Below are positions 33,915 through 37,940 of a stretch of 64,000 nucleotides of DNA, piece after piece. The stretch's first letter is position 1. Each line of letters starts with the position of its first letter. The translations under genes and the position numbers were made by a program. The DNA is from Pseudomonadota bacterium (lineage in GTDB: Bacteria; Pseudomonadota; Alphaproteobacteria; UBA2136; UBA6156), in contig WGMN01000016.1 of assembly GCA_016125035.1 (NCBI GenBank), positions 1,554 through 65,553 on the forward strand. The letters run 5' to 3'. Below the pieces are notes generated by a model. The model saw only the letters and a list, made by a program, of their open reading frames with translations. It made no database searches and was not told the DNA's origin.

Positions 33915-34322
33915 ATGCAACGCCCGCTCCTCACCGCTTCCCTTGCCGCCACCGCCGTGGCCCTTGGCGCCGTCTTCGCCACCCTCACGCTCGCCCAGCA
34001 GGGGGGCGGCTGCGTGGCCGGCGGTGGCTGGTGGGGGTGCACGGGGCCGTTGCAACCGGCCAGCCCCATGCAAACCCAGGCCGCCTGCAACGCCCCGCAA
34101 TGGCAAAGCCTGCAAGGCTCCGGGGGCTATGCCCCGCAGCTGGAATCCGCCCGCCAATCCGCCTGCCGGGGCGATATGCCCACCGCGCAAACCAGCCTCA
34201 CCCAGGCGCTGCCCGCGCTGCTCGGCAACAGTGCCGACGCCCAACAGGTCGCCGCCCTGGCCGACCAGGTCAACACCCTCTTCAGCCTGCTCGCCATCCA
34301 CGGCCAGCAGGCCCGCCCGTAA
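33915..34322 (+). CDS. secreted hypothetical protein
   Basis: 135 aa with signal peptide MQRPLLTASLAATAVALGAVFATLTLAQQ. Cys-containing mature part. Confidence 0.5.
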   Translation: MQRPLLTASLAATAVALGAVFATLTLAQQGGGCVAGGGWWGCTGPLQPASPMQTQAACNAPQWQSLQGSGGYAPQLESARQSACRGDMPTAQTSLTQALPALLGNSADAQQVAALADQVNTLFSLLAIHGQQARP

Positions 34323-34371
34323 GGCTCCCGCCGGGCCCTTCCACCTACGCAATCATCTTGCCGCTTTTTCC

Positions 34372-34405
34372 TTGCCAAAAAAGCCCCGCTCTTGCATAAA
34401 TGCAA
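34372..34405 (+). promoter_or_regulatory. candidate promoter with an overlapping perfect palindrome (putative operator) for the HTH-RbcL-like operon
   Basis: TTGCCA (34372-77), 18 nt, ATAAAT (34396-401). Palindrome TTGCATAAATGCAA at 34392-34405. The ATG at 34408 is 7 nt after the -10 box and has no Shine-Dalgarno, which suggests a leaderless mRNA. Confidence 0.45.
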
Positions 34406-34407
34406 AC

Positions 34408-36018
34408 ATGGATACCAACCTCGCTTCACGGCTGAAAACTCTTATCCAGCAACGCGGTCTCACCGCGGCTGGCCTTGCGCGCCAGGCCGGGCTCTCGGTG
34501 GCCAGCCTCTCGCGCATCCTTTCTGGCCAAACCAACCCGTCTTTTCAAAGCGTCAGCCGCATCGCCGCGGCCCTGGGCGTGGGGCTGGAGAGCCTCTCCC
34601 CCGCCCCCACCCAGGCCACTGCCCCTCTGGCCGAGAACACCGTCCGCGCCGTCTATACGCTTGAAAACACCGACCATTCCACGCAAGAAGCCGGCCAGCT
34701 CATGCTCCAGGCCGCCCTGGGCAGCTGGAGCCACAGCTGGATGCACCCCTACGTCGCCGAAGGCATAGAAGCCCCCACCCTCGCCTCGGCCAGCCAAAGC
34801 GGCAGCCACCGCCAACAGGTGCAACTGGCCTTCCCCCACCAATTGGTAGAGGGCGGCAGCGTCGCCAGCCTGCTCAGCGTGGTCACCAGCGCGCTCTCGG
34901 GCACCGGCGCGCGGCTGCTGGATGTCACCGTCCCGCCCACCCTCATCCGCACCTTCTCCGGCCCGGCCTTCGGGCTGCGCGGCCTGCGCGATACCTTCAA
35001 CAAACACGGCCGCCCGCTGCTGGCCTGCACCATCCGCCCCATGCACGGGCTCTCTCCCCGGCTTTACGGCCGCGCGGCGTTCGAGGCCCTCATCGGCGGG
35101 GTGGATATCACCGTCGATCCCGCCCTGCTGCACTCCATCCCCTCCAACCCGTGGCGAGAACGCTTCCGCTTCGTGGCGGAAGCCGCCGCCGCCGCCTCGC
35201 GTGAAACCAATGAGTTTAAAACCCACGCCGTCAACATCACCGCCCCCACCATGGAAGACATGCTGGAACGCGCCACCTGGGCCAAAGAGCTGGAATTGGC
35301 GATGGTGATGGTCGACACCGCCGCCATCGGCTGGTCGGCGGTGCAAAGCTTGGGGGCATTCTGCGCCAAAAATGAGCTCATCCTGTGCGCGCTCGGCACC
35401 CGCAGCCTCAACGGCTCCATGCTGTCCGAGCAACTCCAGGCCAAGCTCCTGCGCATCTGCGGGGCCGATGCCGTCTCCACCGGCTCGCCGCTGCGCGGCA
35501 ACGTCTCCAACCGCCGCTACGTCACCGGGGTGCTCTCGGCGCTGCGCGATGATTCCCTCCCCGCCCAGCCAGAGGCCGGGCACCACCTGCCCCAACCTTT
35601 CGAGGGCCTCACCGCCGCTATCCCGGCGGTGGGCGGCGGCCACAACCCGTGGCAATTCCCCCGGCTGATCGACGCCATTGGCGATAACGCCCTCATCCAG
35701 TGCGGCGGCGCGGTCATGAGCCACCCCTGGGGCGGCCAGGCCGGGGCCACCGCCTGCCGCACGGCTATCGAGGCCCTGGTCCAGGCCCGCGGCGAGGGCC
35801 ACAACCTCAACGTGGAAGGCCGCTCCATCCTGCTCAAGGCCGCCAAATACAGCCCCGACCTCAAACAGGCGCTCGATACCTTCCAGGAAGGCTCGTTCCT
35901 GTTCGGCGTGGTGCACACCCTCTCCCGCCCCACGGAAGGCTCGATCCTGCCGGGAACCAACAACCCCAGCCCAACAATAACCCCCTTCCGCCGCCCGGAG
36001 CCGACCAATGAAGACTAG
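34408..36018 (+). CDS. XRE-family helix-turn-helix domain fused to a RuBisCO large-subunit-like protein (form-I-like, catalytic residues replaced)
   Basis: 536 aa. N-terminus MDTNLASRLKTLIQQRGLTAAGLARQAGLSVASLSRILSGQTNPSFQSVSRIAAALGV is an XRE HTH. The rest aligns with RbcL across both domains (KHGRPLLACTIRPMHGLSPRLYGRAAFEALIGGVDITVDPA; HPWGGQAGATACRTAIEALVQARGEGHNL). The ORF-track extension to 33880 is rejected. Confidence 0.85.
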   Translation: MDTNLASRLKTLIQQRGLTAAGLARQAGLSVASLSRILSGQTNPSFQSVSRIAAALGVGLESLSPAPTQATAPLAENTVRAVYTLENTDHSTQEAGQLMLQAALGSWSHSWMHPYVAEGIEAPTLASASQSGSHRQQVQLAFPHQLVEGGSVASLLSVVTSALSGTGARLLDVTVPPTLIRTFSGPAFGLRGLRDTFNKHGRPLLACTIRPMHGLSPRLYGRAAFEALIGGVDITVDPALLHSIPSNPWRERFRFVAEAAAAASRETNEFKTHAVNITAPTMEDMLERATWAKELELAMVMVDTAAIGWSAVQSLGAFCAKNELILCALGTRSLNGSMLSEQLQAKLLRICGADAVSTGSPLRGNVSNRRYVTGVLSALRDDSLPAQPEAGHHLPQPFEGLTAAIPAVGGGHNPWQFPRLIDAIGDNALIQCGGAVMSHPWGGQAGATACRTAIEALVQARGEGHNLNVEGRSILLKAAKYSPDLKQALDTFQEGSFLFGVVHTLSRPTEGSILPGTNNPSPTITPFRRPEPTNED

Positions 36019-36502
36019 CGCCGATATACTGCAATTGGCCATGGAGCAAGCCGTCCAGGCCGCCGCACAAGCCGAGTACCCCTTCGGCGCGGCCATCGTC
36101 AAAGAGGGCCGTATAATCTGTGCAGAAGGTTCCGGAGCGGCAGAAAATGAGCCCGACCCCACCGCACATTCCGAGGTCAACGCCATCCGTAAAGCCGCCA
36201 AAATCCTCGGCACCGCCAACCTTTCAGGCTGCACACTGGTCTCCTCGTGCGAACCCTGTCATCTGTGCTTTGGCGCCATGTATTACGCCGGTATCCGAAC
36301 GCTGGTAACCGCAAGCTCGATTAAACAGATGGAAACCATCGGCTGGAAATGGCCGGAAAAAGACTTGGCCACCCACCCGGAAACCTACAAAACCGTAAAC
36401 ATCGCCCTCACCGAAGGACTGTTGCACAATGAGGTGATGGCCATGTACCGCCAGCATCCCCAGGCACGAATCACGAATAACGAATCACGAGTTACGATAT
36501 GA
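36008..36502 (+). CDS. CMP/dCMP-type (CDA fold) zinc deaminase, TadA/guanine-deaminase-like
   Basis: 164 aa with HSEVNAI (H.E) and CEPCHLC (PC..C) zinc motifs. Its start overlaps the upstream stop by 11 nt. Confidence 0.85.
   Translation: MKTSADILQLAMEQAVQAAAQAEYPFGAAIVKEGRIICAEGSGAAENEPDPTAHSEVNAIRKAAKILGTANLSGCTLVSSCEPCHLCFGAMYYAGIRTLVTASSIKQMETIGWKWPEKDLATHPETYKTVNIALTEGLLHNEVMAMYRQHPQARITNNESRVTI
36465..36499. repeat. heptamer tandem repeat CACGAAT-type x5, at the deaminase C-terminus next to the rbcS-like start
   Basis: cacgaatcacgaataacgaatcacgagttacgata encodes ARITNNESRVTI* and ends at the ATGA overlap with the next gene. Confidence 0.85.
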
Positions 36503-36837
36503 GATTTGAAACCTTCGCCTTCCTCCCCCCGCTCTCCCCCCAACAGGTGGAGGCGCAGGCCAACCATATCCTCACCCAGGGCCACCTCCCCACCATCGAG
36601 TTCGCCGAGAACCCCAGCAGTGCCGATTTCTACTGGCGCTCATGGCCCATCCAACCGGGGCGCATCAACAGCCTCACCGGCAAGCCGGAACCCCTCACCG
36701 CCGCCCACCTCACCAACCAGCTGGAAGCCTGCGCCCGCCGCCACCCCTACGCCTTCATCCGCCTGTCGGCCTATGATCCCAAAACCCGCCAAACCACCCT
36801 CTCCTTCATCACCAAAACCCCGCAGGAAGGCCAGTAG
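36499..36837 (+). CDS. RuBisCO small-subunit (RbcS/CbbS) homolog
   Basis: 112 aa. RFETFAFLPPLSPQQVEAQANHILTQGHLPTIEF...FYWRSW...HPYAFIRLSAYDPKTRQTTLSFI parallels cyanobacterial RbcS [34 protein letters not shown]...FYWTMW...[20 protein letters not shown]. ATGA overlap with the deaminase gene. Confidence 0.85.
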   Translation: MRFETFAFLPPLSPQQVEAQANHILTQGHLPTIEFAENPSSADFYWRSWPIQPGRINSLTGKPEPLTAAHLTNQLEACARRHPYAFIRLSAYDPKTRQTTLSFITKTPQEGQ

Positions 36838-37002
36838 GCAGAGCCGTTAGCTGGTAGGTAAAGAGCAAACCGCCAACGGGGCGGCTCCGCATCCCTCGGC
36901 CCTGCGCTGCACCTACCTGACTCCACCCCCAACCCCTCGCGCAGGGTCGGGGGTCCAGGGGGCCCGCACGAGCGGATGGAAAGAACGCCGTGCCTTGCGG
37001 CC

Positions 37003-37043
37003 AGCCTGCCCCAAAATGTTCTTCACATTTTGGCCGGCAGGCT
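37003..37043. repeat. long imperfect inverted repeat (16-bp stem, 2-nt bulge, 7-nt loop)
   Basis: agcctgccccaaaatg-ttcttca-cattttggccggcaggct, in the 350-nt spacer after the rbcS-like gene. Confidence 0.6.
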
Positions 37044-37106
37044 CCGACCAGGCACCACCCGCCATAGCAACCCGCCAGCCCGGTAAATCAAAACGCCCAA
37101 AAACGC

Positions 37107-37137
37107 AAAAAAGGCGGCCCCACCGGGCCGCCCTTTT
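37107..37137. terminator. bidirectional intrinsic terminator
   Basis: aaaaaaggcggccc-cacc-gggccgccctttt between convergent transcription units. Confidence 0.7.
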
Positions 37138-37190
37138 CGTTCTCGCCACTCGCCCCTACCCCACCATGTGCCTGCAAATCAAGACGTGCC

Positions 37191-37940
37191 CTACCGCCCC
37201 ACCGCCTGCAAAACCGCCAATAACTCGGCGCGGCGCCTTTTGTTCTCCCACCAGAACAAATGCCCCCCACCCGGCACAATCACCAATCTGGCCTTCAGGT
37301 AGCGCCTTAGCGCACGTGCCTCCCATGGCCAGCACAGGCGGTCCTTTTCCCCTTCAATGATGATCGTCTTCGCCGGGTGCTTCCACGCCCATTTCCATTG
37401 CATCACCCCGCGCCTCAGGTCGTTAAGGTGCGCCCAGCGCTCGGGGCGTTGATCTTTAAGCGTCTGGGCATAGCCCAGCAGCTCTTCCAGTGTGTGCTTA
37501 TCCATGCCTTTTTCACAAAACATCAGCCGCAACGGCCGCCGCCAAACCCATGGGCGAATGGCATAATTCCCCCCTGCCCATAGCGCACTTGCCAGCATGG
37601 CATGCCCCTGGCCGCAGGGCGCGCACAGCAGGGCTCTAGCACCAAACTCTCCCGCCAAACGGTAGGCTATCCCGGCACCAAGCGAGTGCCCCATCACCAC
37701 CTGCGGTTCCAATGTCTGCTCACGCAAATGCTTGGCGGCATGGCCGCATATCCTGCCCAACCCCATCCACCAGGGCGCGTGGCGCCAATCCAGCACGGCC
37801 ACCCGCCATTGTTGCTGCAGGTCGGGTAACAAGTTGTCCCAAAAGCGCGCGGTGCACCCCATGCCGTAAACCAGCAGCAACAGCGGCTTGCCCTCGTCTC
37901 CGTGCAGCTCCAGCCGCACCCAGGGCGTGCGGCCGGCCAT
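37191..37940 (-). CDS. alpha/beta-fold hydrolase
   Basis: 249 aa with nucleophile elbow GHSLGAG. Starts 1 nt after the glmM stop. Confidence 0.8.
   Translation of the reverse strand: MAGRTPWVRLELHGDEGKPLLLLVYGMGCTARFWDNLLPDLQQQWRVAVLDWRHAPWWMGLGRICGHAAKHLREQTLEPQVVMGHSLGAGIAYRLAGEFGARALLCAPCGQGHAMLASALWAGGNYAIRPWVWRRPLRLMFCEKGMDKHTLEELLGYAQTLKDQRPERWAHLNDLRRGVMQWKWAWKHPAKTIIIEGEKDRLCWPWEARALRRYLKARLVIVPGGGHLFWWENKRRRAELLAVLQAVGR

Follow-up and report, generated by a model that had tools for sequence, protein, structure and literature searches.

To our knowledge, the small subunit of RuBisCO (RbcS) is known only as the partner of carboxylating form I RuBisCO or as the small-subunit (SSU)-like modules of carboxysome and activase proteins. 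Here we describe an RbcS-like gene of a bacterium from the alphaproteobacterial lineage UBA2136/UBA6156 (assembly GCA_016125035.1). It lies on contig WGMN01000016.1 in a stretch of 64,000 nucleotides (nt), the whole of which is called the window below. Its product, 112 amino acids (aa) long, is a true RuBisCO small subunit homolog, and the only possible partner encoded in the genome is a fusion of an XRE-type helix-turn-helix (HTH) domain with a RuBisCO large subunit (RbcL) that has lost the carboxylase residues. We think it reasonably probable that the two proteins make up an RbcS-stabilised, non-carboxylating complex of large and small subunits (L/S) which represses its own promoter and whose pocket binds a modulating ligand.

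Among the described systems compared, the form I holoenzyme (RbcL8RbcS8; 1rbl/1rsc/2ybv, 7qsw) resembles this locus in both subunits, which are homologous over their full length, in the order of the genes (L, then S), in the fold of RbcS with its N-terminal arm and in the grouping of the fusion with form I proteins (100/100). It differs in that the carboxylase residues are replaced throughout the family described here, residues are deleted after the R295 equivalent and the N-terminus is exchanged for an HTH domain and a linker. Phosphoribulokinase (PRK) was not found here, and RbcS has its own family-specific invariant positions and, in one subclade, a 9-aa loop. As the partner is not competent for carboxylation, the pair falls outside the form I carboxylases. 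The deep form I clades without an SSU (I', I-alpha, I'', I-delta and I''') are form-I-related like the fusion and lie outside the IA-IE crown, as the fusion may do, and the fusion of one genus of the order (g8) likewise stands without RbcS. These clades are active carboxylases encoded beside prk and never had an SSU (bioRxiv 10.64898/2026.05.21.726994). In our family, by contrast, the SSU is present in most members and catalysis has been lost.

Form IV RuBisCO-like proteins (RLPs; MtnW/YkrW, OiaX and others) are similar in that their large-subunit fold occurs in non-autotrophs and has no carboxylase activity. They retain the residues of the metal site and act as enzymes, and, unlike the present family, they have neither a small subunit nor a DNA-binding domain. 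Membership of a characterised RLP subfamily (MtnW, OiaX) was ruled out, as the fusion scores far below the respective cut-offs and branches with form I. With XRE one-component regulators the fusion shares an N-terminal HTH_3 domain, a palindrome at its own promoter and a large C-terminal domain with a conserved pocket; should one oligomer carry many HTH domains, it would also resemble ring-shaped, octameric regulators of the Lrp/AsnC type. The difference from XRE regulators is that the sensor or scaffold would here be a two-subunit RuBisCO body, with the small subunit encoded separately. Finally, the small-subunit-like (SSUL) modules of CcmM and of cyanobacterial Rubisco activase also have an RbcS-derived fold in a non-catalytic role. 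SSUL modules occur within larger proteins and have no RbcS-type N-terminal arm, whereas the protein described here stands alone with its arm intact; an SSUL identity was ruled out on these features, on the uniform length of its homologs (111-116 aa in a search over 61-196 aa) and on the CcmM model, which gave 13.9 bits against a cut-off of 550.

The source genome (1.45 Mb in 18 contigs, 90.7% complete) was compared within a species-level set of its order, comprising 29 genomes including its own, with relatives of 0.9-1.9 Mb. All are metagenome-assembled genomes (MAGs), 54-97% complete, and absences are to be read as 'not found'. The RbcS-like open reading frame (ORF) matches PF00101 (RuBisCO_small) with an E-value of 2e-18 and 66.6 bits (cut-off 27) over the entire model (1-97 of 97), and the genome-wide search with this profile gave one match, at 63.7 bits. 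Among solved structures, 54 matches were obtained at E-values up to 0.01, without exception RbcS chains, the closest being 1uzh_C (8e-17) and 7qsw_B (1.4e-14), the latter the small subunit of a reconstructed SSU-bearing form I ancestor. An AlphaFold2 model built from 23 homologs (predicted local distance difference test, pLDDT, 84.9) has two helices packed on a four-stranded sheet, as is usual for RbcS, with helices (H) and strands (E) arranged as H14-26, E30-36, E47-49, H68-81, E86-93 and E98-106. Its top Foldseek matches were all RbcS chains with template-modelling (TM) scores of 0.68-0.73, led by 7qsw_B (TM 0.73, E 1.7e-8). An earlier note on this DNA, made from the letters alone, had proposed an RbcS homolog and a profile search for it; the significant match over the full RuBisCO_small model and the agreeing fold bear this out.

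The protein database, searched for homologs of 61-196 aa, holds 53 clusters of this RbcS, all 111-116 aa long and 48-83% identical to it. Within the family, 18 columns are invariant at identities down to 47%. In a joint alignment of 53 family members with 52 canonical RbcS from the fetched loci, R2, F3, E4, T5, F6, L9, P10, Q16, Q20, E34, Y45, W46, W49 and C78 are conserved in both groups alike. These shared positions belong to the N-terminal arm, strand B and the helix-B cysteine; the arm itself, R-F-E-T-F-x-x-L-P-P, is invariant or nearly so in both. In known structures, the N-terminal arm and strand B of RbcS pack against the large subunits. Two further stretches are characteristic of the family. 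In the C-terminal TPQEG(Q) (residues 107-112, 36817-36834), P108, E110 and G111 are family-invariant, and so are A79-R80-R81 and P83 after the conserved cysteine; neither stretch is found in canonical RbcS.

The classical loop between strands A and B is short and cyanobacteria-like. An extra segment, amounting to a net gain of nine residues over cyanobacterial and ancestral RbcS, is placed by both alignments and model between strand B (YWRSWPI) and helix B. It is missing from the deeper members of the family (loci L028, L029, L031 and L032), which have the canonical length, and the loop must therefore have arisen within the family as a feature of a subclade. The insertion of about 14 aa in an inter-strand loop that had been described from the sequence thus needs correction in length and in position.

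The fusion was the only locus detected by a genome-wide search with PF00016, which makes it the only possible partner of RbcS in this genome. Its HTH domain (residues 5-61) matches PF01381 (HTH_3) at 9.2e-12 and PF13560 at 1.1e-11 and is present in nearly all full-length members of the fusion family. The large-subunit body matches PF00016 at 1.5e-58, and of the NCBIfam models the form-I-type NF003252 scored best, with 313 bits, below its cut-off of 438. In the AlphaFold2 model (pLDDT 88.4), the HTH domain (1-62) is followed by a low-confidence linker (63-77), the RbcL N-terminal domain and barrel (78-492), and a tail (500-536) that is disordered. The closest solved relative is 7qsw_A (2.5e-86); the alignment begins at about residue 54 of that chain, so that the HTH and linker replace the first ~35 residues of a normal large subunit. 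In the subclade of the window, the tail (35905-36015) carries a conserved motif, NPSP ... TITPF ... RRP ... with an acidic end; the RbcS-less fusions of the g8 type lack it and end directly after the FLFGV block. Fusions with and without RbcS differ at 29 scattered positions with no evident cluster, as judged along the sequence.

To compare residues, 22 members of the fusion family were aligned with 11 true form I proteins, with the carboxylase sites numbered as in spinach (Table 1). K175, K177, K201, D203, E204, H294, H327 and K334 are replaced in all 22, in accordance with the non-catalytic large subunit postulated earlier; the carbamate lysine, the Mg ligands and the P1/P2 phosphate site of form I are thus not preserved as a set. 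The family also has a deletion of six to seven residues after the R295 equivalent. Judged by these replacements, carboxylation by the fusion is excluded. Across 57 fusions with identities down to 40%, there are 45 invariant columns, and the conserved features of the pocket comprise R175, D202, P203, S327, R295 and the GGGH and CGG motifs. The alignment indicates that remodelling of the former active site is fixed, not random, and that the pocket is still constrained.

Table 1. Features of the RbcS operon and state of the carboxylase sites in the fusion family (positions refer to the window, residue numbers of carboxylase sites to spinach)
Feature	Position	Strand	Basis or state
Operator-like box TTCCACCTACGCAA	34339-34352		9/10 match to TTSCA-N4-TGSAA, 69 nt before the fusion start
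Perfect 14-bp palindrome TTGCATAAATGCAA	34392-34405		Ends 2 nt before the fusion ATG; probable operator
XRE-HTH::RuBisCO large-subunit fusion, 536 aa	34408-36018	+	PF01381, PF00016, NF003252
CDA-fold (TadA-like) deaminase, 164 aa	36008-36502	+	PF00383 at 3.8e-20
RbcS-like small subunit, 112 aa	36499-36837	+	PF00101, matches to solved structures and fold
RbcS extra loop, residues ~52-66	36652-36696	+	Alignments and model; subclade-specific
Bidirectional terminator-like hairpin	37106-37139		GC-rich, T-runs on both strands; consensus match only
K175			R in all 22 family members
K177			M/L/I/S in family
K201			A/C/V/F in family
D203			P in all 22 family members
E204			T/A/S/V in family
H294			M/L/T in family
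H327			S in all 22 family members
K334			G/E/D in family
E60, N123			Lost in family
T173, D202, R295, G380-G381 (phosphate-site glycines)			Retained in family
W66, G403			Retained in most family members

The homologs of the fusion form about 90 clusters at 40-71% identity, the next best matches being true form I proteins at 36-40%. Database names are generic ('RuBisCO large subunit C-terminal-like domain-containing protein', 'helix-turn-helix domain-containing protein'), and the named records come from uncultured Alphaproteobacteria of ponds, lakes, groundwater and similar sites. The main tree was inferred with IQ-TREE (LG+C20 PMSF) from 38 sequences, 12 of them from other forms; none of the trees included I', I-alpha, I'', I-delta or I''', the deep clades of form I that lack an SSU. 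In the main tree the fusion family comes out as monophyletic (100/100), with a long stem of 1.25, and joins green-type and red-type form I in one clade (100/100) to the exclusion of the other forms. The position of the family as sister to the green and red crown received 92/80; forcing it together with green-type form I costs five log-likelihood units and is not rejected (approximately unbiased test, p = 0.196). FastTree runs with 84 and 98 sequences recovered the same monophyly and the same affinity to form I. By phylogeny, then, the fusion is derived from form I. The common ancestor of family and crown most simply had a small subunit, as both carry homologous ones. In the partner tree, subclades accord with sequence identity, and the sample examined gives no indication of transfer; the distribution of the family tracks genome taxonomy.

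Within the order, 25 of 29 genomes have a match to PF00101, never more than one each, and nearly the same set encodes the fusion. The reading frames in these 25 genomes are intact and of constant length. Ratios of nonsynonymous to synonymous substitution rates (dN/dS) of RbcS were 0.03, 0.06, 0.14 and 0.15 in the close pairs to which the estimate was limited, dS being saturated in distant ones. RbcS is under purifying selection: the small subunit is maintained while catalysis is gone, in partial support of the earlier suggestion that the L-S interface, and not catalysis, is selected for.

The four genomes without PF00101 all belong to genus g8. Two of these, of 97% and 85% completeness, have a fusion at 41-43% identity (G017, locus L099, C6:3980-5578; G028, locus L100, C16) and no RbcS, neither downstream of it nor elsewhere; a PF00101 search at E-values up to 1 gave only a chance-level match of 12.7 bits. 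The other two are 96-97% complete; the fusion has no match in G022 and a weak, partial one in G025 (E 1.8e-6, 25% identity, residues 79-205). RbcS has been lost at least once, in the one genus where the fusion, too, is being lost. Genome G027 (93% complete, 4% contamination) has two copies of the fusion, C148:926-2527 and C3:8303-9901, at 64% and 56% identity to that of the window; the second copy may be a paralog or a contamination of the bin by a related strain.

The context of these genes is non-autotrophic. A profile search for PRK (PF00485) found no match in the genome of the window, where PF00016 and PF00101 match once each. Of the other 28 genomes in the order, 27 gave no match above the cut-off of 22 bits, and the remaining one, G027, exceeded it marginally, with 23.3 bits. 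By comparison, PRK was matched at 5e-39 in a class-level relative that encodes a real form I enzyme. The non-autotrophic setting that the earlier note had suggested for the window therefore holds clade-wide, within the limits of MAG completeness.

Upstream of the orthologous fusion gene, most of 21 related loci carry the motif TT[GC]CA-N4-TG[GC]AA, in relatives often as paired boxes 17-21 bp apart. In the same loci together with the window, perfect TTSCA-N4-TGSAA occurs nine times in 2,520 upstream positions and never in 328,032 others; at 9/10 or better it occurs 23 times upstream and 41 times elsewhere, a 73-fold enrichment. The fusions of RbcS-less g8 are preceded by related boxes centred on CATATATG. 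From domain content and this family-wide operator, the fusion is very probably a DNA-binding autoregulator, and the palindrome just ahead of its start codon is probably its putative operator. Six perfect matches exist in the source genome (2.7 expected), the operon's own being the only one outside long ORFs. A further weak candidate, the only plausible operator-like site elsewhere in the genome, is found at C12:2635, where TTGCATAGATGCGA lies in an intergenic stretch of 39% GC with a second box, TTGCATCTGCGA, nearby. A simple sigma-70 scan of 34200-37250 detected no promoter.

RbcS follows the HTH-RbcL gene in all 21 related loci that hold both, mostly at a distance of 9-50 nt (9 nt in a genome of the same genus), so that the canonical order, L then S, is kept. 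In the window, the deaminase gene stands between them: it shares 11 nt with the large-subunit gene at the 3' end of the latter, and the start of RbcS overlaps the deaminase stop (ATGA, 36499-36502). The translational coupling of RbcS to the fusion that had been read from the sequence is accordingly a coupling to the intervening deaminase gene, and the link to the fusion is indirect. The 3' end of the deaminase gene (36465-36499) consists of near-repeats of a heptamer, CACGAAT CACGAAT AACGAAT CACGAGT, which run into the ATGA overlap.

None of the 21 related loci has a deaminase in this gap. A single homolog of 50% identity was found among the 28 relatives, elsewhere in its genome, and the remaining matches, at 26-42% identity, are presumably housekeeping TadA-like deaminases. 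Four other loci have other genes at this place: a Glyoxalase/VOC gene in L018 (7596-7961; PF00903, 3.8e-8), NUDIX hydrolases in L025 (7589-7987) and L026 (7585-7989), both matching PF00293 at ~1e-11, and an ORF for a 178-aa membrane protein in L015 (2174-2710). The gap between fusion and RbcS is a slot for unrelated small genes, empty in most genomes. The deaminase of the window is a recent passenger outside the conserved system, since no relative has it there and its single close homolog is located elsewhere. As the functional core of the system it was ruled out, being missing from the operons of all relatives.

The terminator-like hairpin sits between the RbcS operon and a convergent alpha/beta-hydrolase gene (37191-37940, minus strand), and from its sequence probably ends both. 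The neighbourhood proS ... fusion, RbcS ... glmM recurs among the related loci, which indicates vertical inheritance. Elsewhere in the assembly, a 14-mer, TTGCACAAATACAA, or its reverse complement lies ~11 nt from the ends of many contigs (C2, C3, C6, C12, C15, C16; e.g., C15:12 and C15:65657) which suggests that the assembly is interrupted by some repeated element or by an artefact. The DNA of the window was matched by one hot-spring metagenome run, which may be its source.

Our inferences beyond these observations concern L-S binding, oligomerisation, repression and a ligand, both its existence and its identity; they can be put together as follows. RbcS would bind the body of the XRE-HTH::RbcL fusion, capping L2 dimers, and would keep the fusion soluble as an oligomer of form I type (L2S2 up to L8S8), an L/S complex without carboxylation. 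Pairs of HTH domains of this oligomer would bind one or two TTSCA-N4-TGSAA boxes over its own promoter, and the operon would thus repress itself. The conserved, arginine-rich former active site would probably bind an anionic metabolite that tunes DNA binding. RbcS, in turn, would be retained through an inherited structural dependence of the large-subunit fold (solubility, assembly) and not for catalysis. Work on reconstructed form I enzymes shows that their solubility depends on the small subunit in a layered manner, genetically separate from the effect of this subunit on catalysis (PMC11696622), which gives a ready reason for the persistence of RbcS after catalysis was abandoned; its retention here fits the published small-subunit 'entrenchment' for solubility. 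A bolder version, which we hold to be somewhat doubtful, is that the whole form I architecture, possibly an L8S8 with eight HTH domains, was turned into a metabolite-sensing transcription factor, with RbcS kept purely by structural dependence and one genus having escaped it.

Several findings weigh against the self-repressing L/S complex. Genus g8 keeps a fusion without RbcS, and two of its genomes have no clear fusion, which makes RbcS, and even the whole system, dispensable. The genome has only one convincing operator, the operon's own; no target can thus be named beyond the operon, and the benefit to the cell is left unexplained. Furthermore, a strongly conserved pocket would equally fit a new enzyme activity. 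The L/S complex might indeed still be an enzyme with a new, non-carboxylase chemistry like that of RLPs, the HTH adding autoregulation, as it does in bifunctional enzyme-repressors, and RbcS supporting catalysis. We consider this unlikely, though worth keeping in mind: the former active site has been remodelled in a fixed manner, with no decay, and some of the operon passengers (deaminase, NUDIX, VOC/glyoxalase) are small-molecule enzymes, yet the carbamylated lysine and the metal ligands (K201, D203 and E204), needed for the enolisation chemistry common to RuBisCO and characterised RLPs, are gone in all members. The MtnW/OiaX models scored 115, 86 and 67 bits against cut-offs of 409, 514 and 700, and the passengers, which vary by genome and are missing from most, define no pathway.

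It is rather improbable that RbcS, instead of being a structural subunit in the canonical position, has become a regulatory partner, a co-repressor or anti-repressor that acts on the fusion or a different target through a new mode of binding. The family-specific A79-R80-R81, P83 and TPQEG tail, the subclade-specific loop and the genus that has a fusion without RbcS would suit such a role; the residues shared with canonical RbcS, on the other hand, are those of the arm and strand B that pack against the large subunit, and the order of the genes is canonical. To have a palindromic operator at its own promoter is typical for an XRE-HTH of the antitoxin or phage repressor kind, and this, together with variable genes between two conserved ones and the losses in one genus, might point to a module that is mobile or serves in conflict (toxin-antitoxin-like or defence-like) and has a variable cargo slot, in place of a housekeeping regulator. 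That is made very improbable by the presence of the pair as a single copy, by its chromosomal neighbourhood (proS ... L S ... glmM), which is conserved across the order, by the distribution along genome taxonomy and by the lack of any sign of transfer in the partner tree sample. Least of all do we expect both genes to be functionless, decaying relics of a lost Calvin cycle. Such an origin would account for the lost carboxylase residues and for PRK not being found, but it is at odds with intact frames of constant length in 25 genomes, dN/dS of 0.03-0.15, the 45 columns of the fusion that are invariant at identities down to 40%, and the acquisition of an HTH and an operator that are both conserved; the pseudogene or relic reading was rejected on the selection data.

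In the full-text literature, subscription journals not being covered, we found nothing on an HTH-RuBisCO fusion or on an SSU paired with a dead large subunit. If the self-repressing L/S complex proves true, the family would be, so far as this search shows, the first case of a RuBisCO fold serving as the body of a transcription factor. It would also be a natural experiment on the 'entrenchment' of the SSU once catalysis is removed, and a useful one: catalysis has been lost while purifying selection on RbcS continues, a sister genus has lost RbcS and kept the large subunit, and DNA binding, as predicted, would provide a new read-out for assembly. The entrenchment idea is directly testable with natural sequences from the family. 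For the biology of these bacteria, matches to rbcL and rbcS in their metagenome bins are not evidence of autotrophy.

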